From positions 256,001 through 320,000 of the forward strand of contig CAWBKB010000005.1 of assembly GCA_963789265.1 (NCBI GenBank): 64,000 nucleotides of DNA, read 5' to 3'. Positions 8,317-55,622 of this stretch are shown piece by piece. This stretch comes from an uncultured delta proteobacterium (GTDB lineage: Bacteria; Desulfobacterota; Desulfomonilia; Desulfomonilales; Desulfomonilaceae). The position numbers were made by a program, and so were the translations under genes. The first letter of the stretch is position 1, and the number at the start of each line of letters is the position of its first letter. The notes beneath the pieces were generated by a model. It searched no databases. It saw nothing but the letters and a program-made list of their open reading frames with translations, and was not told where the DNA came from.

Positions 8317-8327
8317 AGGAAAGTATA

Positions 8328-9491
8328 ATGGAAACAAGAACACCAGATTTGGATGTTAGCGATGCCATAGTGTACTCCGGAGCTGAAACGCTTTACTGGT
8401 GCATGCAGTGCGGCCTCTGCACAGGGTCTTGTCCCTGGCGCTTGGTACCGGGCGAGGCATCTGAGCAGTTCAACATAAGAATGGTGCAGCGCCTGGGTCA
8501 ACTCGGTCTCGAAGGATTTGAATCGGAGAATTGCCTTTTTGCCTGCACTACGTGCAAGACTTGCGTAGATCGCTGCCCGCGCGGTGTGGACATCATCGGC
8601 AATGTCAGAGGAATGCGCAGCATGATGGCTGAAGTCGGGTCGATACCGCCGAGCCTTAAGCCCATAGCAGGCAGCTTGCACGCCCAGGGGAATCCGTGGT
8701 CCGGAGACCGGAACAAGCGGACCGAGTGGATTAAGGGCGTCGATGTCCCGACGTCTTCGGAAAATACCGAGTATTTCCTCTCCGTGTGCTGCACCTCCTG
8801 TTACGATGTCAGGAGCCAAAAGATCGCCCGCTCGGTTGCTAAAGCGCTCCAGGCGGCGGGGGTGAGTTTCGGAATCATTGGCAACGAGGAGAGTTGCTGC
8901 GGAGAGTCCATTCGGAAGATCGGCGACGAGGAACTCTTCCAAAAGGTGGCCAAATCCAACATAGATCTTTACAACAGCAAAGGCGTGAAAAAGATCATCG
9001 TTACCTCACCTCACTGCCTTTACACATTCAAGAACGAATATCCGGACCTGGGCGGAAAGTGGGAAGTTTTCCACTATACGGAGATTTTGGCTCAGGCGGT
9101 GGCTGAGGGGAAATTGAAACTCTCAGGTGACGCGATCGGTCCTGTAGCCATGCACGATCCGTGCTATTTGGGTCGCCACAACGAGATCTACGATCAGCCC
9201 CGAGAGCTGATCGCGGCCATTCCGGGCTCCGAGGTGAAAGAACTATCGAGGAATCGCAAGAACAGCCTCTGCTGCGGTGGCGGTGGCGGAAGAGTCTGGA
9301 TGGAAACCAAAGCCGGTGAGCGGTTCGCGGAGCTGCGCATTACCGAGGCGATTGAGTCGGGCGCCAAGACTCTGGTTACCGCGTGCCCGTATTGCATCAC
9401 CATGCTCGAAGATTCCTGCAACGTTATGGGGAAATCCGAGGAGCTGAAAGTGATGGAACTATCAGAGCTTATAGCGGAGAAGATCGGTTAA
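8328..9491 (+). CDS. HdrD-like Fe-S oxidoreductase (2x[4Fe-4S] plus two CCG domains)
   Basis: CMQCGLCTGSCP, CTTCKTCVDRCP, ESCCG, HDPCYLGRHN, CCGGGGG, TACPYC; no transmembrane region. Confidence 0.9.
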   Translation: METRTPDLDVSDAIVYSGAETLYWCMQCGLCTGSCPWRLVPGEASEQFNIRMVQRLGQLGLEGFESENCLFACTTCKTCVDRCPRGVDIIGNVRGMRSMMAEVGSIPPSLKPIAGSLHAQGNPWSGDRNKRTEWIKGVDVPTSSENTEYFLSVCCTSCYDVRSQKIARSVAKALQAAGVSFGIIGNEESCCGESIRKIGDEELFQKVAKSNIDLYNSKGVKKIIVTSPHCLYTFKNEYPDLGGKWEVFHYTEILAQAVAEGKLKLSGDAIGPVAMHDPCYLGRHNEIYDQPRELIAAIPGSEVKELSRNRKNSLCCGGGGGRVWMETKAGERFAELRITEAIESGAKTLVTACPYCITMLEDSCNVMGKSEELKVMELSELIAEKIG

Positions 9492-9504
9492 AAGTCTTGT
9501 AAGA

Positions 9505-9776
9505 GTAACCGGGGAGGGACTTTTTGCAACCTCGCGCGACGCGGGGCCTCTCCGGACGCCTCCTCAAAAACTCCTATAATTTGTAGTCTCTGGTGCCTAG
9601 GCTCCCGCCTGGGCACCCAGTATGCCTTCCGGGCTCTGCCTGGCTGTATGCCGAGATCCCGCGATTATTGGAGGCAGAGCCTGGCAACGAGAGAATGTAA
9701 GGGCAGGTTTCAAACCTGCCCCTACCATCAATGCAGTGGGCATCGCAAAGCCCCCGGCTCCTTCTCACAAACTCCT
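9505..9776. repeat. Cluster of REP-like palindromic repeats
   Basis: GGGGAGGGACTTTTTGCAA...CCTCCTCAAAAACTCC; GGCTCTGCCT...AGGCAGAGCC inverted pair; GGGCAGGTTTCAAACCTGCCCCTAC hairpin; lies between convergent genes. Confidence 0.55.
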
Positions 9777-10754
9777 CTAATTCTCACCTCTTATCGAATC
9801 AGTTGCGCAAATCTCAATAGCTCCGACCATATCCGCCGGCAACGGTGAAAAAAACTCCACATATTTCTGACTTCTTGGATGAGTGAAGCCAAGCACCGAC
9901 GCATGAAGCGCCTGCCTGTTGAGCACTTCCAGGGCTCTTAGTGGTCGCGGATCAGCGAGCCCTCCCTTTCCACGCATCTTTCCGTAAACAGGATCTCCCG
10001 CCACCGGCAAGCCGATATGAGCAAGATGAACCCTGATCTGATGCGTCCTACCCGTCTCAGGGTATACTTCAAGAAGTGTCAGGCCGCCAAACCGCTCTTT
10101 TACCCTCCATCTTGTGACCGCGCGGCGGCCCTTTCCTGTAGTGGTGGACATACGTTTTCTCTCCTTGACGTGCCTCCCTATCTCGGCATCGACGAGTCCG
10201 CTCTCCTGGCCCGGATCGCCCCTGACCAATGCCACATACACTCTGCGAATTGAATGAGCCTTGAATTGAGCCGACAGTGCGGCGTGCGCGGCGACCGTCT
10301 TTGCAAAAATCATAACCCCTGATGTGTCTTTATCGAGCCGATGGACCACGCCCCAACGACCCGGCTCGCCTACCTCCTTCATTTCCGGTCTCGTGCTTAT
10401 GAGGACATCCATGAGAGTGTTTGAAGGGCGTCCCGCACCGGGGTGCACGACGAAACCGGGGAGCTTGTCCACCACTATCAGATCCTCGTCCTCGAAAATG
10501 ATTCCAAATGATGGGGCTTCGATCTCGGGACTCGAGGTTGCAATCATTTTCTCAGGGAGAATCTTTATTTCGTCTCCAGGGCTTAGAACCGTGGAAGGGC
10601 TGATTGTACGGCCTCTCACTAGCACTCGGCCGCTCCGAATCATGCGCGCCACCGATGACCGGCTTTGGCTGGTCGCAAGGCAAGCGGCCAGGATCTTGTC
10701 AGCCCGGTCGGGGAGAGCATCTTCAGGGATCACAAATGAAGGCGGAAGGTCCAT
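9777..10754 (-). CDS. rluD: RluA/RluD-family pseudouridine synthase
   Basis: N-terminal S4-like region, VHRLDKDTSG catalytic motif, TGRTHQIRVH, RQALHA. Confidence 0.92.
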   Translation of the reverse strand: MDLPPSFVIPEDALPDRADKILAACLATSQSRSSVARMIRSGRVLVRGRTISPSTVLSPGDEIKILPEKMIATSSPEIEAPSFGIIFEDEDLIVVDKLPGFVVHPGAGRPSNTLMDVLISTRPEMKEVGEPGRWGVVHRLDKDTSGVMIFAKTVAAHAALSAQFKAHSIRRVYVALVRGDPGQESGLVDAEIGRHVKERKRMSTTTGKGRRAVTRWRVKERFGGLTLLEVYPETGRTHQIRVHLAHIGLPVAGDPVYGKMRGKGGLADPRPLRALEVLNRQALHASVLGFTHPRSQKYVEFFSPLPADMVGAIEICATDSIRGEN

Positions 10755-10847
10755 GTATTTACGCTTCTTACAATTTTGGTGAATTCGGCGTCTTTCCGGT
10801 TGGTCGCGCACTTGACTGATATGCTTCAATGCATCATGTCAGTGGAT

Positions 10848-11045
10848 ATGAGAGTAACACTGTATATTGACGACGACCTATTGAAGAAAGCCTCGAATCT
10901 CACCGGTGTCAAGGAGAAAACTTCATTAGTGAGAATGGGCCTGGAAGCACTGATCGCTCGTGGGAGTGCTAGAAGACTTGCCGATCTCCGTGGGACTGAG
11001 AAGGACCTGAAATCTACCCCAAGAAGACGCTATATAAGCGAGTAA
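10848..11045 (+). CDS. vapB: VapB-family antitoxin (orphan)
   Basis: MRVTLYIDDDLLKKASNLTGVKEKTSLVRMGLEALIAR matches the RHH VapB (DUF2191-like) pattern; no PIN toxin downstream. Confidence 0.8.
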   Translation: MRVTLYIDDDLLKKASNLTGVKEKTSLVRMGLEALIARGSARRLADLRGTEKDLKSTPRRRYISE

Positions 11046-11127
11046 GCATGCCACTGGCAGATGGGGCCCAAACTGTCGGCGGAGTGCAGGAATGCTCCTT
11101 TAGTGCCGACGAAACTCTGTCGTCATT

Positions 11128-12558
11128 TTACGCATCGTTGCCGGATGAAGCTCGGTTGAGGGCGTCCCGTATAAGTCTTGGGATCAGCGAGGGCTGATCC
11201 TCCAAGAGGGTTCGGGGGTCTATAAGAACCGTATCGTCCTTGATCAGTGTTATTACCGGTGGAGTGCCCAGTCTGAGACTATGCTCCAAGCGTGCGGCCG
11301 ATATGTCCAGCGGACGAATGGCTACCCGCGGACCGGGGAGGTCTCCCATCGGCAGTGCACCGCCCCCTACTCTACCGATTCCCGGCTCGATGCTTACCTC
11401 AACTCGTGCGCCAACGACTTCGCGTATTGCGTCGGCAAGTTCAGCGGCAGTTTTCGCTAGCTCTGACTCGGACTTGGTTATCATCATCAGCGTTGGGATG
11501 CATGTGCTAGGCCCTTCGGGTCGGGTGTACTCAACGAGCGTGGCTTCCAGACCCGCAAGAGTCAGCTTGTCCATTCTAAGTGCCCGTGCGAGAGGATTTG
11601 TCTGCATCTTCTCGATAAGATCGGCACGACCGGCCAGAATCCCTGCCTGGGGTCCCCCGAGAAGCTTGTCCCCGCTAAAACTTACCACGTTGACGCCTTT
11701 GGCAAGAACATCCTGGACTGTAATTTCTTCCGGTAGGCCGTACGGCGACAGATCCACCAGACATCCGCTACCCAGGTCCATCATCGTGGGAATTCCATAT
11801 TCTTTCCCTATGGCCACCAACTCTCCCAGCTCGACCTCCCGAGTGAATCCCACGATTCGGTAATTGCTGGTGTGCACTTTCAGAATTAATGAGGTGTTTG
11901 CTCCGATTGCCTGAATGTAGTCCTTAGGATGCGTCCTATTGGTTGTGCCAACTTCTTTCAGGATTGCACCCGATTGAGCCATTACGTCAGGTATCCTGAA
12001 AGAGCCTCCGATTTCTATGAGTTCCCCTCTGGAAACTATGACTTCCCGTCCCTCAGCCAGACTAGACAATGCCAGCAAGACCGCAGCCGCATTATTATTG
12101 ACTGCCAGAGCGGCCTCAGCCCCTGTCAATTCCTCCATGAGTTCTCGGAGATGAGCGTTCCTTTCTCCTCTTCGTCCTTCTCCAAGGTTATATTCAAGAT
12201 TGGAATAGGACTGTGCGGCTTCCGATATCTTTTCAGCCACTCTCTTAGACAGAGGAGAACGTCCGAGATTAGTGTGAACGATCACTCCGGTCGCGTTTAT
12301 GACAGTGACGACCTTTGGCCCGACTGTTTCCAGAGCCAGGCGGGATGCCCGCCGAATCAGCGCGGAAATTGAGCAGTCCGCGTGTGATGCCTGACCCTGA
12401 CGGATTTCCTCTCGAAGTTCGTCCAAGGCGCGTCTCACCATCCGCTTGACAATTTCTTGGGAGTATTTCTCCCTGAGAGGCGCCAATTCCGAGGCGGACA
12501 AGAGGCCGTCCACCGAAGGGATCGAGCGAAACAAATCTGTGGCGTGCTCTTCTCCCAT
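11128..12558 (-). CDS. selA: L-seryl-tRNA(Sec) selenium transferase
   Basis: INATGVIVHTNLGRS, VNNNAAAV, SRGELIEIGGSFRIPDVM, EVGTTNRTH, FSGDKLLGGPQAG. Confidence 0.98.
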   Translation of the reverse strand: MGEEHATDLFRSIPSVDGLLSASELAPLREKYSQEIVKRMVRRALDELREEIRQGQASHADCSISALIRRASRLALETVGPKVVTVINATGVIVHTNLGRSPLSKRVAEKISEAAQSYSNLEYNLGEGRRGERNAHLRELMEELTGAEAALAVNNNAAAVLLALSSLAEGREVIVSRGELIEIGGSFRIPDVMAQSGAILKEVGTTNRTHPKDYIQAIGANTSLILKVHTSNYRIVGFTREVELGELVAIGKEYGIPTMMDLGSGCLVDLSPYGLPEEITVQDVLAKGVNVVSFSGDKLLGGPQAGILAGRADLIEKMQTNPLARALRMDKLTLAGLEATLVEYTRPEGPSTCIPTLMMITKSESELAKTAAELADAIREVVGARVEVSIEPGIGRVGGGALPMGDLPGPRVAIRPLDISAARLEHSLRLGTPPVITLIKDDTVLIDPRTLLEDQPSLIPRLIRDALNRASSGNDA

Positions 12559-12573
12559 AGGGAAGTTTCCTAA

Positions 12574-13104
12574 TCAGGACGAGGACTTCAGTTTGAAGGA
12601 ATTGATTGCGCTTTCGAACGCCGGAATGAATGATTTGAAATCCTTAGCCGGTGCCAAAAAGTCAACATCGATCATTTTCTTTTTGGTTATGACCAGCAAG
12701 TGCCAGGTGCGGAGACGTGTAGGATCGTCCGGGGCCTTTTCCTTAGACAACAAGGCATTTCCTCCCTTCACCTGAAGAGTGCGCACCTCTTCCAGGCTTT
12801 TGTCCGCCTCTGCAGCTTTTCGAAGTGCCTTGAAAAGCATATCCCCCGGAGGTGTAAAAAGGTCTCCTACCACCAGGTAAATCTCAGCGGAGCCTTTCTT
12901 CCATTTTAGTATCCCAGACTCGTCGACTGGCTCAGGCGTGAATCCTTCCGGAACTTTCATATCAAAGAACCTTCCTGCCTGCTCTGCAGCGGCGGGTTCT
13001 TGCTTTTTCGAAGCTCCAGACTTTTTCTCAGCCAACGCGGGGGAACAAATTAGAATTGTTGCCAGGCAGAGAATCCAGACTCTTGTCAAGTCAGCACGTC
13101 TCAC
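12574..13104 (-). CDS. Secreted hypothetical protein
   Basis: Signal peptide ending PALA; 176-aa ORF directly upstream of and co-oriented with selA. Confidence 0.75.
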   Translation of the reverse strand: MRRADLTRVWILCLATILICSPALAEKKSGASKKQEPAAAEQAGRFFDMKVPEGFTPEPVDESGILKWKKGSAEIYLVVGDLFTPPGDMLFKALRKAAEADKSLEEVRTLQVKGGNALLSKEKAPDDPTRLRTWHLLVITKKKMIDVDFLAPAKDFKSFIPAFESAINSFKLKSSS

Positions 13105-13181
13105 GTGAATTTCCTCCGTAAGAAATTATACCGCACTCAAGCCCCACACGAGCTGTCGATCTCCGGGAGAATTGACCTTGG

Positions 13182-14555
13182 ATGCGTCGATTGATAGCAT
13201 GGATAAATGTCTGTGTCAAAAGCATCATAACGAGGAAATCACACCTGCCGAAAAACGCCCTGGTAAGAGTTTTAGGTTGCAAGGTAAACCAAGCCGAAGC
13301 CGAAGCTATGGCTCGCGAGCTGGAGAGCTTAGGTTATCGCATTGAAGCTTCGGCCGATGCCCCGGACCTTGTCGTCGTAAACACCTGCTGCGTAACCTCG
13401 AAGGCAGAAGGAAAATCAAGGCGCATGGTCAGCGGTCTGGCGCACAAATTCCCTGGCGCACGGATAATCGTTACCGGCTGCCTTGCAGAAATAAATCCGT
13501 TCTCTTTGGAGAGCGCGGCTCCGGGCGCGATCTTGCTCGGGGCTTTTGCAAAGGATCGTCTAAGGGAGTTCATCGATGAGGTCGCGAATGATGTTGGCGT
13601 TGTAGCGGACAGCGGCGCCTCTCCCTGCACGACATGTGTCGATCGCGGCCCCCGAACGGCGAGGCACAGAGCCAGGGCTTTCTTGAAAGTCCAGGATGGT
13701 TGTTCCCAGTCATGCGCTTACTGCATAGTACCCGCTGCTAGAGGCCCGTCCAGAAGCTTGTCAGTGGATCAGCTCTTGCTCGGCGCACGCGATATGGATT
13801 CCGATGGATTCGCGGAGATAGTGTTAACGGGAGTCCATCTTGGAAGTTACGGCCGGGACTTTCATCCTCCGATGAGCCTTGAAGATTTACTGGAGCGCCT
13901 CCTGGAAAAGTGCCCGTCCGCGCGATTCAGATTGAGTTCCGTGGAACCCCAGGAGATCACTCCCAGCCTGATAGAACTTGTGGCCGGCAACCACAGAGCG
14001 TGCCGGCATTTCCATATTCCGTTACAAAGTGGCGATGACAACATCCTTAGCCGAATGAGAAGGCCGTATGACACCGCGTTCATCCGGCACCTGATAGACA
14101 GCATTTTCGCGCGAGTCCCTCAGACCTGCGTCGGCCTCGACATTATGGTGGGCTTCCCCGGTGAGGACGAAGAATCATTTAGAAGAACTGTGACTCTCAT
14201 TGAAGGATCTGGGGCCGCTTACCTGCATGTGTTCCCGTTTTCTCCCAGGCCCGGAACTCCGGCAGCCTCTTTCGAGCCGCGAGTGCCTGAGGGCATTGCT
14301 CGACGAAGGGCAAAGGAGTTAAGAGTATTATCCCAGACCCTGCGGCACCGTTTCTATGAACGCTTCGTGGGAACTACTTTTTCGGCTGTACGAGAGTCGG
14401 GACCCGACCCCGATACAGGGCTCATTGTCACGAGAACTGACAATTACATACCCGTGCATGTGCGCGGAGCTTCCGCTACTATCCGCAAGCGCACATTTCC
14501 GGTGACGCTGGAACGGGTTGTAGATCAGAAAGTGTTCGGAACGCTTTTAGTTTAA
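13182..14555 (+). CDS. mtaB: tRNA t6A37 methylthiotransferase (radical SAM)
   Basis: LGCKVNQAE, VNTCCVT, RAFLKVQDGCSQSCAYC, HFHIPLQSG, LHVFPFSPRPGT. Start uncertain. Confidence 0.9.
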   Translation: MRRLIAWINVCVKSIITRKSHLPKNALVRVLGCKVNQAEAEAMARELESLGYRIEASADAPDLVVVNTCCVTSKAEGKSRRMVSGLAHKFPGARIIVTGCLAEINPFSLESAAPGAILLGAFAKDRLREFIDEVANDVGVVADSGASPCTTCVDRGPRTARHRARAFLKVQDGCSQSCAYCIVPAARGPSRSLSVDQLLLGARDMDSDGFAEIVLTGVHLGSYGRDFHPPMSLEDLLERLLEKCPSARFRLSSVEPQEITPSLIELVAGNHRACRHFHIPLQSGDDNILSRMRRPYDTAFIRHLIDSIFARVPQTCVGLDIMVGFPGEDEESFRRTVTLIEGSGAAYLHVFPFSPRPGTPAASFEPRVPEGIARRRAKELRVLSQTLRHRFYERFVGTTFSAVRESGPDPDTGLIVTRTDNYIPVHVRGASATIRKRTFPVTLERVVDQKVFGTLLV

Positions 14556-41316: not shown

Positions 41317-41586
41317 GAAAAAGTTCCTCCGCTGGTCAAACGACGGATTCCTACGCCTCCGGTCACAGGTGATGCACACCTATCAGGAATAAAGCGCAAC
41401 GTCAAGAAAAGGCAAAGAAAAATGTGGCTTTTTTATTTTTATGATTGAATTATCGAATCTTTTTGCAGATTGGTAGGGATAGGGATTCCCGAATGTAATC
41501 GCCGATTGTTTTCCGGCTCTCCCCAAAACGACGGACCGCAACCTGGCTGTTACGGCCGCGAGCGGGCCCGTCTAATCTTGCTGCGG

Positions 41587-42727
41587 TCAGAAGATCCGGG
41601 ACGCTAGTGGCAGATTTCGGACCAGAAACGCGACAGCGAAACAAAGCGGAACGCCGATGATCGCCGCCAGGCTGAATTTGAGCAGGTGTTCCAGCTCGAT
41701 GTTGCGCAGCGCCAGGCCGAGAAACACGATGACCGGAATGTGGATGACGTAAACCGTATAGGCCTGTCGAGTCAGGAACCGTCCGAACCGTCCCTGATGG
41801 TTGAGGAAGCGACGGAAGAAGGCAATCAGTCCTGAACAAATGCCGAACGAGAAGATGGAATCCCAGAGCGCGTAGATCCCGGACTCCCAGTGTCCTCGGC
41901 CCAAGAAGTTGGCTTTGCCGCTGAGCGCAAGCGGGAGCAGTACCAGTGTTGAGCCGATCGCAAGCACACACCCCACCTTGCCCATCGAGCTCGGCATGTT
42001 GCGAAACCAGTCGCGATGGTAGGCGACGGCACCAATGATAAAGAAGCTCAGGTACTGCGGAAAATAGGCAAGGCTCGGGAAGCCGAGCACCGAATGAGCC
42101 AGTGGCAGCACAGTGCGGACAAGGTAGCTTGCTAATGCCAGTACCTAGGACCGCGGCACCTATCAGTCGATAAGGTGGCAGGGTGGAGTCGCACTTGGGC
42201 CGGAGCGGCCGGTTCTTTGTTGCCAACCGCCACGCGACGTATCCGACATCGATGATAAGCAGCATTGCCACAAACCACATCGGCCCCATGGCGATCAACT
42301 TGGGATATTGCTGCCAGGTGAACGGTGTGGTGATGTGGGTCAACTCGCGTGGCATCCGATAGACCCCGACCCACGCAATCGGGTTGAGCACAAGAGCGTA
42401 AACGACCAACGGAATGCCCAGGCGACGAAACCTTTCCACCAGAAATCGAGTCGGTCCCTTACGGTGGAACGAGCCCGGCGTGAGGTAACCTGAGAGCAGG
42501 AAGAAGAAGCCCATGAAGTGGGCCTGGTTTAGGAGCTGAAACACCACGAGCACCATTGCCGCCCGCGCATCCCGGTACGCGGGCTCCTCGTAGTAAAAGG
42601 GCATGTTAGCCGCGTACATGATGGCCAGATGGTGCAATACCACTAGTGTCGTCAAGGCCACCCTGAGGTGGTCGACGAAGAACAGACGGGTTCCTGCTTC
42701 AAGTGGCGGCGGTGGACTGGTGGCCAT
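41587..42727 (-). CDS. Acyltransferase_3 family (OpgC/MdoC-like) membrane protein (frameshift near 42145)
   Basis: RLFFVDHLRVAL..LVVLHH, MGFFFLLSGY, RRLGIP, GPMWF, AYTVYVIH. Confidence 0.88.
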
Positions 42728-42855: not shown

Positions 42856-43287
42856 TCATTTTTGCTGTTCTGCGATCTTGTCGATCTCTTCGTCGATGAA
42901 TTTTTTGAATGCGTCACCCGGGGACATTAGTGCCCCCTTTTCCGCTTCAAGGTTGGATGGGCGAATCTTGCAAATCCAGGCAGCGCCGTATGGATCTTCG
43001 TTCATTTTTTCGGGTTCGTCCTCCAAGTCCGTGTTCACCTCCGCGACCTCGCCTGAAACCGGTGCATAAATCCTACCAACCCACTTGCCGGACTCGATAG
43101 AACCATAAGGCTTACCTTGGGTCACTTCGCCCCCCTCTTCAGGCAGATCCACGAATGTGATTTCCCCTGCCTGTTTGGAGATAAACTCAGTGGCACCCGT
43201 GACTACCAGACCGCCTTCCTCTTTCGCCCAGAAGTGATTCTTTTCGTATTGTAGGTCATCAGGGAACACATACCCCTTATGCTCCAT
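42856..43287 (-). CDS. gcvH: Lipoyl-carrier protein, GcvH/LbpA-like
   Basis: H-protein fold: FVDLP, GSIESGKWVG (lipoyl-Lys), APVSGEV.EVN, NEDPYG..W; SD AGGAGG; no gcvT/gcvP nearby. Confidence 0.92.
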   Translation of the reverse strand: MEHKGYVFPDDLQYEKNHFWAKEEGGLVVTGATEFISKQAGEITFVDLPEEGGEVTQGKPYGSIESGKWVGRIYAPVSGEVAEVNTDLEDEPEKMNEDPYGAAWICKIRPSNLEAEKGALMSPGDAFKKFIDEEIDKIAEQQK

Positions 43288-43406
43288 AGCATCCTCCTCT
43301 AAAGCGAAATCGAAATTAAGAAATCGGCCGCAGCACCTTTACAGGAATCACGCGCCTTTGGCATTCCGTCCAGGCTTGTCCGGTTTATCCCGCGGCAATA
43401 TCGGCA

Positions 43407-44282
43407 TCAACCTTCCACGATTTTCAGCAGCTCGGAAGGCTTCACACGGTTCAGCTTGAACCCCAGTTGCTCGGAGGGCAGGCCAAAGGCCAAGCCCAAG
43501 ATTTGCGGATAGTAAACCACCGGCACTTTGAGGTCAAGACCTGCCGCTTTTACGATCTTTTTTTGTTGGCCTTCATACATCACATTGCAAAAGGGGCAAA
43601 CAAGAACGAGCGCGTGAGCTTGGGCGTCGGCCACATCGATCAATTTTGTAACAGCCATCGCATTGGCGACTTCTTCTGATATTCCAAGCAGTCCTCCGCC
43701 GCAGCAGTCCTTAAGCGAGGGATAATTAATTACCTGCGCGCCGGTTGCAGAAATTAGTTCTGTCAGTGTCTTGGGGTCCGAGGCCGAATCAAAGCCGGCT
43801 GTCAACTCAGACGGCTTCAGGTAGTGGCAGCCGTAGTGAGGCGCAAGAATCACACCGGTGAGGGGCCGCGTGACAGCGTCCTTGATCGCTTCCGCGCCTA
43901 CCTCTTCCCACAGCAGCCTCATATAATGGCGAACCCTCACTGGACCTTCATATCGTAGACCAACCTCCTTGAGACTCTTGTTCACTTGTTCTTTTAGCTC
44001 CGGATTGTTATCCAGCGCGTGGGCTGTTTCCGCCAGGGTTCCCGCACAGGCGTTGCATAGAGCGCAGATTTCGACCCCTTCTCTTTCTGCCAGTGCCAGG
44101 TTACGTGCAGCGATCAGCGTCGTTTGATGTACATCCAATGATTTTAGCGGAAATCCACAGCATCCGAAGGCTTCGAGATCCCTGAAGTTAATGCCCAGCG
44201 CGCGTGCAGTCAATCTCGCGGACAATTCATAGTTAAGGTTCCTGACGGGCACGGTGCAACCAAGGTATAAGAGTGCTTCCAT
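43407..44282 (-). CDS. hdrB: Heterodisulfide reductase subunit B
   Basis: YLGCT, GCCGFP, LCNAC, HYGCH, DCCGG, VCPFC (two CCG domains). Confidence 0.93.
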   Translation of the reverse strand: MEALLYLGCTVPVRNLNYELSARLTARALGINFRDLEAFGCCGFPLKSLDVHQTTLIAARNLALAEREGVEICALCNACAGTLAETAHALDNNPELKEQVNKSLKEVGLRYEGPVRVRHYMRLLWEEVGAEAIKDAVTRPLTGVILAPHYGCHYLKPSELTAGFDSASDPKTLTELISATGAQVINYPSLKDCCGGGLLGISEEVANAMAVTKLIDVADAQAHALVLVCPFCNVMYEGQQKKIVKAAGLDLKVPVVYYPQILGLAFGLPSEQLGFKLNRVKPSELLKIVEG

Positions 44283-44365
44283 GAGAACTGTCTTTCATTC
44301 CGCTGCAATTTTTAGCCGCTGGAATCTTATTAAATCGCTTCGGGGGCGAAATAGCCTGCTATCGG

Positions 44366-44830
44366 TTACAGTAGGCGGTTGTAGTCTTCAGGGTGTTCAA
44401 CAAGGGAAGGCAGGCCAAGCTTATTGCGCTTTTCGTTCTCAAACTCACCGACCTCGTAGAGACGGCCATGCTGTTTAAGCAGCGATTTTTGACCCGTCAA
44501 CCCCGGTGGTACACAAGCCTCGGCAGCCGCGAGATTCTTGATCGCGAATATCACCTCGGTGAAGCGCACATTCTGGGGGCACACTTCGTGACACCCGTAG
44601 CAACTGGAGCAAAGCCAAATGAAATCACTCTCCAGCACCTCCTTTTTCATGCCCAGCAACACCATGCGTATGATCTTTCGTGGATCGTACCGTTTGTCTA
44701 CCACATTGATCGGGCACGCCGCGCTGCAAGCTTTGCAGGCAAAACATGCCCTGATGGCCTCACCTCCCGGTTGTTGCGCCACACGATGCTTAAAAGAAGG
44801 GTCGAGCGTATTCAGTTTGATGCGGCTCAT
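44366..44830 (-). CDS. hdrC: Heterodisulfide reductase subunit C
   Basis: CFACKACSAACP, DPRKIIRM, WLCSSCYGCHEVCP. Confidence 0.93.
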   Translation of the reverse strand: MSRIKLNTLDPSFKHRVAQQPGGEAIRACFACKACSAACPINVVDKRYDPRKIIRMVLLGMKKEVLESDFIWLCSSCYGCHEVCPQNVRFTEVIFAIKNLAAAEACVPPGLTGQKSLLKQHGRLYEVGEFENEKRNKLGLPSLVEHPEDYNRLL

Positions 44831-46413
44831 AGTATCGCTCCCCCCATATTGCGGACCGCTTCTACGAGGACGTTGGGGGTATTGCTCGCAATGGGAACGA
44901 ATTTCACTCTGTCCGGGTCCATCCCGATTTCTGTAAGAAACTCTCCCACTTGACCGATTCTGCTCTCGGCAAGCAGGTTACCGTATACCGACGCGCAGTT
45001 CCCTTTGAAGCAGCCGGCGACAATCACCCCTTTAGCACCTGATTCCAATGACTCCCAAATATGGTTCAGGCCGACTGTCCCTGCGCAGGGAACTGTAATG
45101 GATACGAGGTTCTCGCCTAAGCAGTGGCCGACTGACTCCATCGCGGGAGCAGCCGAGCGGGAGCAGAGGAAAACCGCTATTTTGCCACCGGCTCCGGCAT
45201 GGGTCAGGTCCGCTCTGATTCGCTCTAATATCGCGCTTTGAGGTTGTACGGGAGTTAACTTTATTGCTTCCATGGGGCATTCTGCCGCACAAATGCCGCA
45301 ACGAGTGCATGTGGCAATATCCGCTGCTGCTTGTTTACTGAAACTTATCGCCCCATGTGGGCATACGCGCACGCAGGTGAGGCACATCGTACATTTGCCG
45401 GGATCGACCTCCGGAGGGCCTGGAAGTTCCGCGAGCGGCGGTTCGGGGATGGGCCTCTTCAGCGCTCCTACCACTGCCTCGATGTCGCCGCGTATAAGCT
45501 CGGGATCAAAAACTCCACGTGAACCGCCCACAGCGAAGATTCCTGCCTTAGGTGTGTCCACTCCTGCAAACCGTATTGATTCTGGCTTCAGAAATGGAGC
45601 TGCGAACCGCCAAGAAGGAATGGCATTAGAAACCGGCTCCAGAATCGGGGGAGGAAACAACTCTTCGTCCACCACCAGCAGATCCGGCACGAGTTCCATT
45701 TCCGAACCCAACAGTGGATCCAAGAAGCTAATTACCGGTCCATCCGCGCAGCTCTCGAAACATGGCCCTTCGAGGTCGAACTTGAAAAACAACGCACCCT
45801 TCTCTCGGCATTCTCTGTAACGCCTTTCCAGTCCGAAAGCGGCCACCTTGAGGTGGCGCGTGAATACGTATGTCTGCACTTGTCCAAGGCTCTGAAGTTT
45901 TTCTATGGCATCGAGAACTCTTGAAAAAACAGCCGGGTGTGACCCCCCTTCAAGTCCAAGCAGAAAAGCTGCATGGAACCAGTCGCCTGATCGACGCTCA
46001 AGTGTGTTTTCGGTTTGAAGGTCCGCTTCCAGGTCTGACAGGCTGAGAATCTTTCTAGATCGGGCCAGTCCGTATGATTCGTACTTTGGAACGACCGTTG
46101 CCGGCTTCGCCGCGACAATAAAGCCCACCTGTTCTGTCAAACGCCCGCTGCCGGTTCGCAGAGTTACTTCGAATCCGCCTACGAAGCCTTGAACCTCATC
46201 GAGGTCCGCATCCGCTAACAAACGAACCTTTTCGTACAACCCGTCCGAGGAAGCTTTTCCGGCCAGGAGCACATCAAAACCTTCCTCGGCCAATCGCAAA
46301 GCGAGATCTTTGCCTGTTGCATCGCCGCCAAGCACAAGTACGCGCCTGTAAGCTCCGTTCCCCGCCTTGAACTCCCTCGTCAGGAATACCGATCCGGTTA
46401 CCGATGCTTTCAC
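44827..46413 (-). CDS. Degenerate HdrA-like domain plus ferredoxin plus MvhD fusion
   Basis: Eroded FAD motif VLGGDATG; CTMCLTCVRVCP and CTRCGICAAECP; MvhD-like FLC...VPCAG...AGCFKGNCAS. Confidence 0.85.
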   Translation of the reverse strand: MKASVTGSVFLTREFKAGNGAYRRVLVLGGDATGKDLALRLAEEGFDVLLAGKASSDGLYEKVRLLADADLDEVQGFVGGFEVTLRTGSGRLTEQVGFIVAAKPATVVPKYESYGLARSRKILSLSDLEADLQTENTLERRSGDWFHAAFLLGLEGGSHPAVFSRVLDAIEKLQSLGQVQTYVFTRHLKVAAFGLERRYRECREKGALFFKFDLEGPCFESCADGPVISFLDPLLGSEMELVPDLLVVDEELFPPPILEPVSNAIPSWRFAAPFLKPESIRFAGVDTPKAGIFAVGGSRGVFDPELIRGDIEAVVGALKRPIPEPPLAELPGPPEVDPGKCTMCLTCVRVCPHGAISFSKQAAADIATCTRCGICAAECPMEAIKLTPVQPQSAILERIRADLTHAGAGGKIAVFLCSRSAAPAMESVGHCLGENLVSITVPCAGTVGLNHIWESLESGAKGVIVAGCFKGNCASVYGNLLAESRIGQVGEFLTEIGMDPDRVKFVPIASNTPNVLVEAVRNMGGAIL

Positions 46414-47639
46414 TGGTCCTCCCCACGAGAGATCTTGGCAATATATGAGGTAACTTGACCGGCAGTTCGGATCGCATGGGAAACTGTTTCCTCGATGGAT
46501 TTGGGTCCCTGGACAGTTCCGGCAACGAATACTCCGGCGCGACTGGTTGTGACCGCCTCTCCGTTTCCCCCAACGAAGCCGTCCATATTCAAACCCACAC
46601 CAAGCAGATTCCCGAGTGCGGCACTTGAGTGGCTCGGGGAGATGCCCCCACTTAAAACTACAAGATCAAACGATTCTAAGGCCCTCTTGTCATCCGACCC
46701 GTGATAGACCAACTCCGGCTTGCCGTCCAGCGCGGTGCGGATTTCTGACGGAATCGATCGGATCAGCTTCACCTCTTGCTCGGCCTCCTTCAGGCGCTCC
46801 TCGAAGTCACGTTCAAAGGACTGGATATCCATGTAAAACATTGACAGGTCCACCTGAGGAAAGCGAGTTCGCAAAAGACGCGCGAGTCTTAAAGCATAAG
46901 CGCAACAAACGCGTGAACAGTAATTCCGCCCGATTTTGGCGTCTCGACTCCCTACGCACTGAATAAAAGCAATTTTTGCGTTGCCACCTGGATCCCAGCA
47001 GTTCTGTCTAAGTAGCGACTCAAGTTCAAGACCTGTGACAACTCCCGGCACCCGGCCGTACCCGAATCGAGGAGTTTCGGTAGGGTCAGTGGGCTTGAAA
47101 CCGGAGGCCAACACAACTGTTGATGCATGAACGTCAAGGATGTCATGACTCCGATCAAGCTTAACGGCCTCTCGACGGCAAGCATCCCGGCAGGCATGGC
47201 ACGAGGCATCCTGAAACCAAAGGCATCTCTGCTCGTTTATGGCAATAGCGCGATTCCAAGGAGAGCGCAGGAGCGCTCCCGGAACAGGGCAGACAGCCTC
47301 GCACGCTCCGCAATTGTTGCATCTTTCGGGCATTATTAGGAGAGGTCTTCGGGAAATGGTTAGTTGAAAATCTCCAGGCTTGCCTTCGACCTGAAGCAGG
47401 TCCGACTGAAGGAGCACAGTAATCCGGTTCGACAATTGCACTTTATGCAGAATATCTTCCAGGAGACAGGCGCCGCATCGCTCGCATTGATCAGTAGCCT
47501 TGCAGCATAATTGTGCGACATGTCCGCCCGGAAATGCAGCGGTTTCGACGATCACAGACTCCAATCCCAGCCGGGCCAGTTCCCACGCGCACCATAGTCC
47601 GGCTATGCCGCCGCCAAGGATCACTGCGTCTTTCTTCAT
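46410..47639 (-). CDS. hdrA: Short HdrA-family flavoprotein
   Basis: ILGGGIAG, CCKATDQCERCGAC, CNNCGACEAVCP, IQCVGSRD...YCSRVCC, GVFVAG...GPK. Confidence 0.9.
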   Translation of the reverse strand: MKKDAVILGGGIAGLWCAWELARLGLESVIVETAAFPGGHVAQLCCKATDQCERCGACLLEDILHKVQLSNRITVLLQSDLLQVEGKPGDFQLTISRRPLLIMPERCNNCGACEAVCPVPGALLRSPWNRAIAINEQRCLWFQDASCHACRDACRREAVKLDRSHDILDVHASTVVLASGFKPTDPTETPRFGYGRVPGVVTGLELESLLRQNCWDPGGNAKIAFIQCVGSRDAKIGRNYCSRVCCAYALRLARLLRTRFPQVDLSMFYMDIQSFERDFEERLKEAEQEVKLIRSIPSEIRTALDGKPELVYHGSDDKRALESFDLVVLSGGISPSHSSAALGNLLGVGLNMDGFVGGNGEAVTTSRAGVFVAGTVQGPKSIEETVSHAIRTAGQVTSYIAKISRGEDQ

Positions 47640-47805
47640 CGCGTAAGTGCCTTACCACAGCCGAGTCAACCCTGCAGGGAAGCATGGCCGGCTCAGCAGC
47701 TTCACTGTTGCCACAGACGAAATGCCGGCCACGAACCGCCGGAAACGGGAAAGTCCGCCGCCTGGAGCGGTTTGCATGGAGAACACTTACGGAACGGATT
47801 TTCAT
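47636..47805 (-). CDS. Candidate triple-selenocysteine microprotein (~56 aa; one-base frameshift assumed near 47763)
   Basis: ATGA overlaps with both flanking genes. Reconstructed MKIRSVSVLHANRS/QAADFPVSGGSWPAFRLWQQ-U-SC-U-AGHASLQG-U-LGCGKALTR. UGA at 47704-02, 47695-93 and 47668-66. Confidence 0.6.
47643..47693 (-). promoter_or_regulatory. Two candidate SECIS-like hairpins
   Basis: CCC-UGCA-GGG (47679-47670) within an AGCCG...CGGCU stem, loop at +26 and +17 from UGA1 and UGA2; GUAAG-GCA-CUUAC (47655-47643), loop at +16 from UGA3. Confidence 0.5.
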
Positions 47806-48497
47806 CCTTTCCGAGCGGTGTGATCGCCGGCCGATAAAAGTTGATATTCTCTCCGAACTATTTTAGCGGGGTGTGTGCTCCGATCGTTGCATTTGGGCGG
47901 CACGATCTCTTTCAAGAAGTCAAGACGCGATTGGCGTTCTAGCCGAGAAATGATCTGTACCCACGCGCAATCCCTTTGCGGGTCTGTTTCGCACTTGCCG
48001 TTCTTTGGGCCCCCACACGGTCCGTTCAGAAGTCCTTTCGCGCACATCGTTACGGGACAGATGCCGCCGGTGATCCCAAGATAGCACTGATTGCAAGATC
48101 GACAACGCTCGGACCACACGCCGGCCCCTTCGGACACTCCTATGAAGCTGGTGTCCACGCCGGGAAAGACCGGGATGTCGGGATACATCTCGGCGAGGAA
48201 CTGGATGCCGGCCCCGCAAGCCAGGGACACGATCGCGTCAACTTGCGCTACATGATCGCGAAACAACTGTATGAATTCGCGGTCGCATTGGCGTTCCACT
48301 GTAGCCGCTACGGCCTGGAAATTTTTGTTGTCATGCCCTGCGGCAAGTTTAAGACGTGTTGCGAGAATTCCCGCTTCTTTCTCTCCACCTGTTAGGCAAA
48401 CCGCGACGCACGTTCCGCACCCTGCCACGAGAATGCGTGAATAGCCGCGTATCATTTTCTGGATTTCGACAAAGGGTTTGGCTTGAGCAACAATCAC
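47802..48497 (-). CDS. metV: MetV-like (methylene-THF reductase C-terminal domain) Fe-S/Zn protein
   Basis: GCGTCVAVCLTGGEKE, ERQCD, LACGAG, CRSCNQC...GICPVTMCAKGLLNGPCGG...CE...CAW. Confidence 0.9.
   Translation of the reverse strand: MIVAQAKPFVEIQKMIRGYSRILVAGCGTCVAVCLTGGEKEAGILATRLKLAAGHDNKNFQAVAATVERQCDREFIQLFRDHVAQVDAIVSLACGAGIQFLAEMYPDIPVFPGVDTSFIGVSEGAGVWSERCRSCNQCYLGITGGICPVTMCAKGLLNGPCGGPKNGKCETDPQRDCAWVQIISRLERQSRLDFLKEIVPPKCNDRSTHPAKIVRREYQLLSAGDHTARKG

Positions 48498-53448: not shown

Positions 53449-55622
<2,174 letters not shown>

Follow-up and report, generated by a model that had tools for sequence, protein, structure and literature searches.

HdrABC-like genes are widespread among sulfate reducers, syntrophs, and acetogens without CoM-S-S-CoB synthesis, and we know of no established substrate for the HdrB site in those bacteria. 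One variant, sHdr, has the gene order hdrC1B1A-hyp-hdrC2B2. According to the cited account, sHdr needs the lipoate-binding protein LbpA, a precedent for pairing an Hdr-type enzyme with a lipoyl protein (PMC6067878). A second system is the MetFV-HdrABC-MvhD methylene-tetrahydrofolate (methylene-THF) reductase of Moorella thermoacetica and Sporomusa ovata (Mock et al. 2014, as cited in PMC8760232, PMC6085437, and PMC9430772). As reported for S. ovata, interactions of MetV with HdrA and with MetF were seen in pull-downs, and the Hdr-type methylene-THF reductase system did not respond to free lipoate or dihydrolipoate, protein-bound lipoate not being included in that account (PMC9430772). Oppinger et al. 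weighed whether GcvH partners MetVF and thought this improbable (PMC8760232). The general idea has thus appeared in print for GcvH with MetVF (PMC8760232) and, in archaea, for GcvH with HdrB (PMC9723716). Our literature searches found no description of an Hdr cluster with a dedicated GcvH-like carrier of the kind presented here, and within those searches the statement of the first-pass annotation that this combination had not been characterized is borne out.

Gene content, domains, and cofactor motifs

We analyzed a 64,000-nt stretch of DNA (the window) from a sulfate-reducer-like bacterium, in which open reading frames (ORFs) and Pfam matches delimited six co-oriented genes on the minus strand at 42856-48497, namely, those for a MetV-like protein, HdrA1, HdrA2/MvhD, HdrC, HdrB, and a GcvH-like protein. 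Seven genes had been counted in the first-pass annotation; six of them were recovered, and the seventh, a selenopeptide gene, dropped out for want of a coherent ORF. The first five had also been described as joined by 4-bp overlaps, which we found at only two junctions, hdrA1/hdrA2D (46410-46413) and hdrA2D/hdrC (44827-44830); the remaining spacers measure 162 nt (metV-hdrA1), 83 nt (hdrC-hdrB), and 119 nt (hdrB-gcvH). The cluster does end, as proposed, in an H-protein gene (GcvH-like, 42856-43287, PF01597), and the reported lack of metF, gcvT/P/L, and hydrogenase genes agrees with the Pfam search: in the ORFs scanned (ca. 29 to 60 kb of the window), none was assigned to metF, gcvT/P, lpd, or a hydrogenase. 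TusA, DsrE, and rhodanese domains were likewise not found among these ORFs.

HdrA1 (46410-47639, minus strand, 409 amino acids [aa]; Pfam Pyr_redox_2 and Fer4) is a flavoprotein of the thioredoxin-reductase fold with a GGGIAG dinucleotide motif and an inserted ferredoxin domain. It aligns with residues 142-556 of a solved HdrA (8rvv_A; E value, 2.7e-62) and lacks the N-terminal and C-terminal domains of the methanogen protein. The HdrA2/MvhD fusion (44827-46413, minus strand, 528 aa; two Fer4 domains plus FlpD) has an HdrA-like fold with a degenerate dinucleotide motif (GGDATG) and no inserted ferredoxin domain, followed by a C-terminal 2x[4Fe-4S] ferredoxin domain (Fer4 at 334-388) and a fused MvhD (FlpD at 412-524); it could be aligned with HdrA (432-642) and with MvhD chains. 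Across relatives, the dinucleotide motif reads GGDxxG in most aligned Desulfomonilaceae sequences and GxGxxA in Desulfarculaceae. HdrC (44366-44830, minus strand, 154 aa) has two [4Fe-4S] motifs and matches Fer4_8/Fer4_17 in Pfam, its score against TIGR03290 (93.8 bits) lying under the cutoff of 160. HdrB (43407-44282, minus strand, 291 aa) contains two PF02754 stretches with two complete CCG cysteine motifs and is colinear with a solved methanogen HdrB across 4-287 (9sfi_C; E value, 5e-59). Its cysteines C9, C41, C42, C76, C79, C152, C193, C194, C229, and C232 were invariant in 35 orthologues.

A distinct GcvH subfamily with conserved linkage to HdrB

The GcvH-like lipoyl carrier (42856-43287, minus strand, 143 aa) is preceded by a strong AGAGGAGG Shine-Dalgarno sequence, matches PF01597 (129.9 bits; E value, 6e-38), and passes the cutoff of the NCBIfam gcvH equivalog (122.9 versus 115.85). 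Its best solved relatives are all GcvH, and K68, which aligns with the lipoyl lysine of the pea and M. tuberculosis H proteins, is invariant in 35 orthologues together with the motif ESGKWVGR. Identity to the canonical GcvH of the same genome, in which the motif reads ESVKAVS, is 40%. Given that a canonical gcvT-gcvH-gcvPA-gcvPB operon is found on another contig (L068) and that an invariant ESGKWVGR motif and a C-terminal extension set the Hdr-linked clade apart, the carrier is probably not the glycine cleavage H protein; by these sequence characters, it is a separate GcvH subfamily. In other families, the same clade adjoins other CCG-domain proteins, either a GlcD-FeS-CCG fusion or an HdrD-like protein.

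We surveyed 20 Desulfomonilaceae loci from 20 genomes and found all six genes in order in 16 of them; two of the others were cut by contig ends, one lacked MetV, and one lacked both MetV and the adjacent GcvH. A wider survey took in the best 80 of 474 loci with the carrier-type GcvH (Desulfomonilaceae/-ales and Desulfarculaceae, including Desulfocarbo indianensis SCBM), with counts made by available flank. Among these best 80, HdrB was located upstream of gcvH in 71/75 loci (70 by script plus L189, with a 647-nt gap), while HdrC was present in 70/74, HdrA2/MvhD in 57/67, and HdrA1 in 52/61. The gene order, on which the first-pass annotation had made its proposal depend, is thus conserved. Five of the best 80 loci had HdrC-HdrB-GcvH without upstream HdrA1/HdrA2D, and in the two annotated ones (L158 and L160), the neighbors were unrelated genes, which points to HdrCB-GcvH as a putative core unit. 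Carrier-type GcvH without HdrCB within 10 kb was found in 4/75 of the best 80 loci (L138, L150, L153, and L155), and in one genome (G020), hdrB and the carrier gcvH were on different contigs. The clusters of some relatives also have a GlcD-FeS-CCG fusion.

Along the same lines, in one set of 401 genomes sampled from the phylum (identity thresholds of at least 53% for HdrB and at least 58% for the GcvH type), the same 26 genomes held both proteins, and the two genes were adjacent by coordinates in 24 of these 26. Neither HdrB nor the carrier-type GcvH occurred in six genomes representing a sister family within the same class. All of these counts span related genomes, which are not independent samples; as sequence evidence, they support the view that the Hdr genes and the GcvH-like gene form a conserved unit.

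The metV-hdrA1 spacer and a possible C1-folate link

The first-pass annotation had placed in the metV-hdrA1 spacer (47640-47801, minus strand, 162 nt) a small Sec peptide (U-x-x-U) acting as a diselenide microcarrier for HdrB. The motif TGA-AGC-TGC-TGA does occur there, and in-frame TGA codons were found inside several HdrA-like matches of related genomes, which leaves room for selenocysteine use in the group. However, the frame of the motif has no ATG, GTG, or TTG start after the preceding stop, and it differs from the frame of the ATGA at the metV stop. The ATG at 47805 opens a 104-aa ORF that had no Pfam match and whose frame runs into hdrA1; from this ATG, the TGA that overlaps the start of hdrA1 lies at a distance not divisible by three. 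The closest relative (L029) has TGA-TAA-TAG-TGA at the position of the motif, which is not kept in four other genomes of the genus, where non-triplet indels break the frame, and in other Desulfomonilaceae members the whole spacer is only ca. 36 to 70 nt long. The genus alignment showed a conserved block (GACTTTCCCG ... CGGCGGT) and no conserved ORF. Covariation gave no support to a predicted RNA structure of the spacer (term, +0.87), and no Rfam family matched it. With the start, the TGA-x-x-TGA motif, and the end in different frames and with TAA/TAG in the closest relative, the selenopeptide gene was rejected and is already refuted at the sequence level. Since there is no coherent or conserved ORF, the diselenide microcarrier is not supported, and we give it practically no credence.

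The MetV-like FeS protein (47802-48497, minus strand, 231 aa) starts with GTG, has GAGGA 5 nt upstream, and matches PF12225 over profile positions 1-92 of 95 (117.6 bits; E value, 2e-34). Its identity across related clusters is 66 to 93%, and a sequence search gave no solved relative. The genome holds four MetV homologues, of which the three besides the cluster copy adjoin MetF. Four MetF homologues could also be located, although all of them map outside the cluster; neither the cluster nor the window ORFs scanned gave a match to PF02219 (MetF), and no MetF remnant was detected in the metV-hdrA1 spacer by tblastn (best E value, 0.015). Among 59 related loci drawn from the best 80 of 474, MetV was present in 30 and missing in 29. 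Given that about half of the related clusters do without it, MetV is, on this distribution, an accessory rather than a core part of the cluster. The C1-folate link claimed in the first-pass annotation, which we take as tentative, gains something from the metF homologue that lies between metV and hdrA1 in 4 of these 59 loci and loses by the host genus, which has MetV and, in all six genomes (as in most related loci), no metF in the cluster.

Proposed complex, alternatives, and comparison with known systems

Conservation of the Hdr genes and the H-protein-like gene as a unit makes the action of HdrB on a lipoyl disulfide, one of the two substrates suggested in the first-pass annotation, the best-supported reading (HdrB with GcvH in 71/75 of the best 80 of 474 loci and both in the same 26/401 genomes). 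We lean, with slightly better than even confidence, toward an Hdr-type complex in which the lipoyl arm of the dedicated carrier is what HdrB acts on. The product of the locus would be a soluble heterodisulfide-reductase-type iron-sulfur flavoprotein complex, with HdrA1 as the FAD-carrying subunit and HdrA2/MvhD as an additional HdrA-like subunit that, judging by its dinucleotide motif, may have lost flavin binding. Since HdrA2/MvhD would supply the C-terminal ferredoxin domain and the fused [2Fe-2S] MvhD module, HdrA1 and HdrA2/MvhD together would resemble half of a methanogen HdrA dimer. HdrC would wire HdrB to HdrA1, the two CCG (noncubane cluster) motifs would form the thiol/disulfide site of HdrB, and the substrate would be the lipoate dithiolane on K68 of the carrier encoded directly downstream. 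Bound to its protein, this carrier would shuttle two electrons, much as CoM-S-S-CoB serves methanogen Hdr. MetV is likely a third port docked at the MvhD domain; in MetVF reductases, it is the FeS adaptor that passes electrons on to MetF. In relatives with metF between metV and hdrA1, this port would be methylene-/methyl-tetrahydrofolate; in the host genus, the flavoenzyme partner of MetV is not in the cluster and would be supplied in trans or be absent. What the sequences show is the gene content with its domains and cofactor motifs, a GcvH subfamily of its own, and the conservation of linkage and co-occurrence; we infer that the subunits form a complex, that HdrB uses lipoyl-GcvH as its substrate, that electrons are bifurcated, and which way they flow. 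The sHdr-LbpA precedent and the S. ovata pull-downs with MetV speak for this reading as well.

The midpoint potential given for lipoate, -325 mV (PMC8760232), is probably much below what would be expected for a "high-potential" HdrB acceptor and would count against the scheme. The 119-nt spacer ahead of gcvH, the split in G020, and the 4/75 loci without HdrCB (best 80 of 474) also count against the lipoyl-carrier reading, as do the negative result with free lipoate and dihydrolipoate in S. ovata (PMC9430772) and the view of Oppinger et al. on GcvH and MetVF (PMC8760232).

Protein-bound lipoate is a testable candidate for the disulfide partner of nonmethanogen Hdr-type enzymes, and a small lipoyl protein co-inherited with HdrCB offers a concrete partner to test, as the lipoylated carrier and not free lipoate. 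If the reading is true, Hdr enzymes would have a further, third type of substrate in addition to the methanogen heterodisulfide and sulfur-loaded LbpA, and lipoate would gain an electron-shuttle role in anaerobic energy metabolism. More tentatively, and with the balance somewhat against it, carrier-bound lipoate might be the physiological thiol/disulfide substrate of nonmethanogenic HdrB/HdrD-type (CCG) enzymes in anaerobic bacteria generally, a shuttle from dehydrogenases (GlcD-FeS-CCG fusions and MetVF) to HdrA modules with flavin-based electron bifurcation. The Hdr-type methylene-THF reductase might then have its missing second partner in it too.

GcvH has a lipoyl-relay role in Bacillus, and the carrier could be a gcvH paralogue in ordinary lipoate metabolism (glycine cleavage or lipoyl relay) that is downstream of hdrB by chance. 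It does pass the GcvH family thresholds, and it could be expressed separately, given the 119-nt spacer and a strong ribosome-binding site of its own. We consider this very unlikely, set against the canonical gcvTHP operon elsewhere in the genome, the adjacency to HdrB in 71/75 of the best 80 of 474 loci across at least two orders, the strict co-occurrence in 26/26 genomes of the phylum sample, and the distinct and invariant lipoyl-lysine motif. A narrower version of the lipoyl-disulfide reading, for this genome, would be a Moorella-type methylene-THF reductase with MetF encoded elsewhere and lipoyl-GcvH as the second redox partner, a partner left unnamed in the cited accounts (PMC8760232 and PMC9430772). 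Every subunit except MetF is present, metF lies between metV and hdrA1 in the four related loci mentioned above, and one locus of the genome (L073) combines MvhD, MetV, and MetF without Hdr. Nevertheless, it seems unlikely, as the cluster lacks MetF in all six genomes of the genus and in most related loci, MetV is missing in 29/59, the orphan MetF-like gene is only 22 to 25% identical to the cluster-type MetF, and the other three MetF genes are each paired with their own MetV.

In a reading modeled on sHdr-LbpA, the dihydrolipoate of the carrier would bear sulfane sulfur (persulfide) that the HdrB-type site would process, e.g., in sulfur disproportionation or sulfite formation, instead of only shuttling electrons. 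This partnership, from sulfur oxidation, is the only genetically established one between Hdr and a lipoyl protein in the cited account (PMC6067878), and the hosts are, by their names, sulfur-cycling Thermodesulfobacteriota. We find it improbable here: the cluster has a single HdrB/HdrC pair instead of two, the window ORFs scanned gave no TusA, DsrE, or rhodanese domain, and the carrier scores above the NCBIfam cutoff as GcvH, while MvhD, the ferredoxin domains, and MetV, together with MetF and GlcD-type dehydrogenases in relatives, point to carbon/electron metabolism.

With the glycine cleavage H protein, the carrier shares the GCV_H fold and the lipoyl-lysine position (PF01597; K68 aligned), but there is no gcvT/P near its gene, and the canonical operon has its own GcvH. 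The present hosts are named Desulfomonilaceae and Desulfarculaceae, not methanogens, and to our knowledge, bacteria of this type have no CoM-S-S-CoB. Methanogen HdrABC-MvhAGD (5odc, 8rvu, and 9sfi) has in common with the cluster a colinear HdrB with both CCG motifs, HdrC, the HdrA flavin domain, and MvhD. In contrast, the cluster lacks a hydrogenase, and the full domain set of methanogen HdrA is not seen, since no N-terminal domain was found and the C-terminal ferredoxin domain is on HdrA2/MvhD, its functions being divided over two proteins.

As described in the cited accounts, the Moorella/Sporomusa MetFV-HdrABC-MvhD clusters also combine MetV, HdrA, MvhD, HdrC, and HdrB homologues in one co-oriented cluster, and a few relatives of the present cluster have MetF between metV and hdrA. 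Here, however, MetF is absent, and HdrA is divided over two subunits, one of the flavin type and one that is degenerate and fused to MvhD. A GcvH-like carrier follows hdrB, whereas, compared by description, none is named in those accounts (PMC8760232, PMC6085437, and PMC9430772). Along similar lines, the sHdr-LbpA systems of Hyphomicrobium denitrificans and others (PMC6067878, PMC10332631, and PMC11094781) couple an Hdr-type complex genetically to a dedicated GcvH-homologous lipoate-binding protein that is not the glycine cleavage H protein. As described, they have two HdrBC pairs and no MvhD, unlike the single HdrBC pair, MvhD, ferredoxin domains, and MetV found here; they also carry the sulfur transferases DsrE, TusA, and rhodaneses (PMC11094781), none of which was seen among the ORFs at ca. 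29 to 60 kb, and often their own lipoate-assembly genes. By profile scores against the NCBIfam gcvH equivalog, the present carrier is probably nearer to GcvH. Finally, the Ehe/HdrA2B2C2-GcvH system of Culexarchaeia (PMC9723716) is, in the cited description, archaeal, tied to a membrane [NiFe] hydrogenase, and devoid of MetV; likewise based on genomes only, it shares with the cluster described here the proposal that a GcvH associated with HdrB holds the disulfide on which HdrB would act.

Layout and conservation of the cluster

Six minus-strand genes lie between positions 42856 and 48497 of the window, encoding a MetV-like protein (47802 to 48497; PF12225, 117.6 bits), the 409-aa HdrA1 (46410 to 47639), a 528-aa fusion of an HdrA-like protein with MvhD (HdrA2/MvhD; 44827 to 46413; two Fer4 motifs and FlpD at residues 412 to 524), HdrC (44366 to 44830), HdrB (43407 to 44282; two CCG stretches), and a GcvH-like protein (42856 to 43287; PF01597, 129.9 bits), which agrees with the H-protein that the first-pass annotation had placed at the cluster end. 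That annotation described a co-oriented operon of seven genes, the first five chained by 4-bp overlaps. The six genes are real, but the seventh, a selenopeptide gene, is unsupported, and 4-bp overlaps were found at two junctions only (46410 to 46413 and 44827 to 44830), the remaining spacers being 162, 83, and 119 nt long. Promoter and terminator scans gave counts at the level of shuffled sequences (5 versus 4.9 and 10 versus 9.8) and are therefore uninformative about a separate transcription of gcvH. The cluster is flanked by an MFS transporter upstream and an acyltransferase_3 ORF downstream. Among the ORFs scanned with Pfam at ca. 29 to 60 kb of the window, MetF, GcvT/P, Lpd, hydrogenase, formate dehydrogenase, and sulfur transferase were not found, in line with the earlier claim that metF, gcvT/P/L, and hydrogenase genes are absent.

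The family match of the acyltransferase_3 ORF (41450 to 42727) is confined to the first ca. 176 residues, and a glutamyl-tRNA synthetase homologue (54337 to 55622) is divided into two overlapping ORFs, with the catalytic domain at 54337 to 55140 and the anticodon domain at 55131 to 55622; both are likely frameshifts or assembly indels. Split tblastn matches were also obtained for the hdrA genes of several related MAG loci.

The cluster is real and conserved, and the window holds one of its many instances. Across 20 genomes of Desulfomonilaceae, all six genes were found in the same order at 16 of 20 loci; two exceptions were at contig ends, one was without MetV, and one was without MetV and had GcvH on another contig. 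HdrC, HdrB, GcvH, and MetV were 66 to 95% identical across these loci, with both HdrA-like proteins dropping to 35 to 48%. Scanning one genome per species with the carrier alignment gave 474 loci, in partial overlap with the 20-locus set, and the best 80, which we examined, belonged to Desulfomonilaceae/Desulfomonilales and Desulfarculaceae, including Desulfocarbo indianensis SCBM. Counting among these 80 only the loci with sufficient flank, HdrB was upstream of gcvH in 71/75 (one at a 647-nt gap), HdrC in 70/74, HdrA2/MvhD in 57/67, HdrA1 in 52/61, and MetV in 30/59, while a GlcD-FeS-CCG fusion lay directly 3' of the carrier in 15/63. Five of the best 80 loci had HdrC-HdrB-GcvH without upstream HdrA1 or HdrA2/MvhD (with unrelated neighbors in two annotated ones), and in four, no Hdr gene lay within 10 kb of the carrier. 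Members of this carrier clade in another family were found beside an HdrD-like protein or a GlcD-CCG fusion, or divergent from HdrC-HdrB-HdrL-MvhD. Within a sample of 401 genomes of the phylum, 26 encoded HdrB at an identity of at least 53%, and the same 26 held the carrier at an identity of at least 58%, the two being adjacent by coordinates in 24; six genomes of a sister family had neither. Given that related genomes are not independent, these counts describe lineages, not events.

Some loci showed other neighbors. Two without Hdr (L138:7704-9599 and L150:6701-9719) encode, directly upstream of the carrier, a protein of 630 to 640 aa that found no Pfam or NCBIfam match and may be a further partner. 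It is accompanied in L150 by a Zn-alcohol-dehydrogenase ORF, and the same domains lie in the C-terminal third of a 942-aa ORF upstream of metV in another related locus (L037:69-2897). In one related cluster, hdrC and hdrB are separated by an inserted gene for a REP-associated tyrosine transposase (L110:7971-8585).

The metV-hdrA1 spacer and the MetF question

The supposed selenocysteine peptide, proposed as a diselenide microcarrier, was ruled out by reading the three frames of the spacer and aligning it across six genomes of the genus. An ATG at 47805 overlaps the metV stop and starts an ORF of 104 aa, which runs into hdrA1 out of frame and for which no family match was found. A different frame contains the TGA-AGC-TGC-TGA motif; this frame has no ATG, GTG, or TTG after the preceding stop and ends in the TGA overlapping the hdrA1 start. 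The ATG and that TGA thus lie in differing frames, so the two ATGA junctions are not connected by any single one. L029, the closest relative (proteins 85 to 95% identical), has TGA-TAA-TAG-TGA at the same place, and another four genomes of the genus do not preserve the motif, their spacer alignment requiring nontriplet indels. In other Desulfomonilaceae, the spacer is reduced to as little as about 36 to 70 nt.

A conserved block, GACTTTCCCG...CGGCGGT, is present in the spacer of the window (47640 to 47801) and of five sister genomes (L029, L030, L032, L034, and L048). Three of the six genomes, all sisters, have an ORF of 26 codons over it that begins at the ATGA; this ORF is frameshifted in a fourth, broken in L029, and runs on in the window. 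A structured RNA gained no support: the covariation term of the RNAalifold fold was positive (+0.87), and no Rfam family was found across the window. A tblastn search of the spacer for a MetF remnant, using two cluster-type MetF proteins and an orphan MetF-like one, gave a best E value of 0.015 over 30 residues and thus lent no support to one.

The host genome has four MetV and four MetF homologues. Three form MetV-MetF pairs (loci L073 to L075), one as MvhD-MetV-MetF, another with a 1,050-aa NuoF/GltD-type fusion beside formate dehydrogenase genes, and the third followed by glutamate synthase-like genes; the fourth MetV is the cluster copy, and no solved relative of MetV was found by sequence. 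The fourth MetF-like protein (L075:15557-16438) is a divergent orphan beside formate dehydrogenase, rejected as a displaced cluster MetF because its identity to the MetF of related clusters is only 22 to 25%. The link to C1-folate chemistry suggested by the first-pass annotation finds weak support here: a MetF homologue lies between metV and hdrA1 in 4/59 of the best 80 loci with enough flank, but the window cluster is without one, and so without the gene that would connect it to folate chemistry, as is the cluster throughout this genus. Where present, for example in L037 and L110 (MTHFR, 57.5 and 46.1 bits; 37% identical to a host-genome MetF), the cluster has all subunits of the Hdr-type methylene-tetrahydrofolate reductase plus the carrier. 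In a quick MetV tree (disregarding the row own_L074, which came from a MetF frame), the MetF-linked cluster MetVs were placed next to the MetF-linked paralogues of the host (SH-aLRT, 91 to 92; long branches), a hint, too weak to rely on, that MetF may have been lost from the cluster.

Hdr subunits, lipoyl proteins, and a candidate mechanism

HdrB is colinear with the solved methanogen HdrB (residues 4 to 287 versus 4 to 289; E value, 5e-59), and the ten cysteines of both CCG motifs are invariant among 35 orthologues. The alignment of HdrA1 spans residues 142 to 556 of the solved HdrA, that is, the flavin domain and the inserted ferredoxin domain, without the N- and C-terminal domains, while the HdrA2/MvhD fusion aligns to HdrA residues 432 to 642 plus MvhD. 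The dinucleotide motif of HdrA2 reads GGDATG versus GGGVAG in the solved HdrA; its Asp is retained in most Desulfomonilaceae sequences, and those of Desulfarculaceae have GxGxxA. Residues 86 to 184 of the fusion contain no cysteine. We infer a HdrA1-HdrA2/MvhD heterodimer in which the flavin, the path to HdrC-HdrB, the C-terminal ferredoxin domain, and the MvhD [2Fe-2S] module each occur once.

The host genome has seven GCV_H matches, including a canonical gcvT-gcvH-gcvPA-gcvPB operon on another contig. The Hdr-linked GcvH is 40% identical to the canonical one, reads ESGKWVGR around the lipoyl lysine versus ESVKAVS, and has a C-terminal extension. A third paralogue (150 aa) belongs to a co-oriented run in the same genome (L070, G000:C1:2360000-2379000; ca. 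7674 to 14161) with an ArsR-type regulator, a 113-aa ORF, a pair of DGC-domain proteins, a 497-aa Lpd-like flavoprotein, a 292-aa radical-SAM protein, and an LplA/B-type ligase. This run has the appearance of a distinct lipoyl-protein module equipped with assembly genes of its own. Two more ORFs (L071:6481-7377 and L072:5964-7040; 298 and 358 aa, counted from the first possible start) have a weak GCV_H match in the C-terminal half, and no family match was found for their long N-terminal stretches. In Desulfarculaceae-family genomes, a more distant copy (L120:9817-11798 and L122:2434-4412; 50 to 52% identical by tblastn) adjoins a large LplA-type ligase fusion and a PLP-dependent decarboxylase-like gene, a different lipoyl-protein context.

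HdrC-HdrB and the GcvH-like protein would act as one functional unit, with the CCG site of HdrB reducing or oxidizing the lipoyl dithiolane, the HdrA1-HdrA2/MvhD pair serving as a flavin-based module, and MetV as an optional third port. Of the two substrates first put forward for HdrB, the diselenide has no coherent ORF, and action on the lipoyl disulfide is the reading best supported by gene content and conserved linkage. A terminal HdrB acceptor would be expected to have a higher potential than that reported for lipoate, -325 mV (PMC8760232, excerpt), a value that fits better a mid-potential shuttle or confurcation.

Comparison with known Hdr systems

In the full text of the open papers searched, no Hdr-GcvH unit was described in Desulfobacterota, which agrees with the first-pass remark that no characterization of the combination was known; as far as this literature goes, the putative Hdr-lipoyl-carrier partnership is a variation on the known Hdr systems that had not been described before. 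The Moorella/Sporomusa MetFV-HdrABC-MvhD complex has five subunit types in common with the window cluster. According to excerpts of PMC9430772, the second partner of that reductase is unknown, free lipoate and dihydrolipoate had no effect when tested in S. ovata, and "proteinogenic dithiols" were raised as a possibility; excerpts of Oppinger et al. (PMC8760232) consider GcvH as a partner of MetVF and judge it unlikely. The partnership proposed here turns an old open question into a testable one. A GcvH-HdrB link was proposed from genomes of Culexarchaeia (PMC9723716, excerpt). The precedent of an Hdr-type complex requiring a GcvH homologue is sHdr-LbpA (PMC6067878, excerpt), from which the window cluster differs in two defining features: it has one HdrBC pair rather than two, and no sulfur transferase was found among the ORFs scanned at ca. 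29 to 60 kb of the window.
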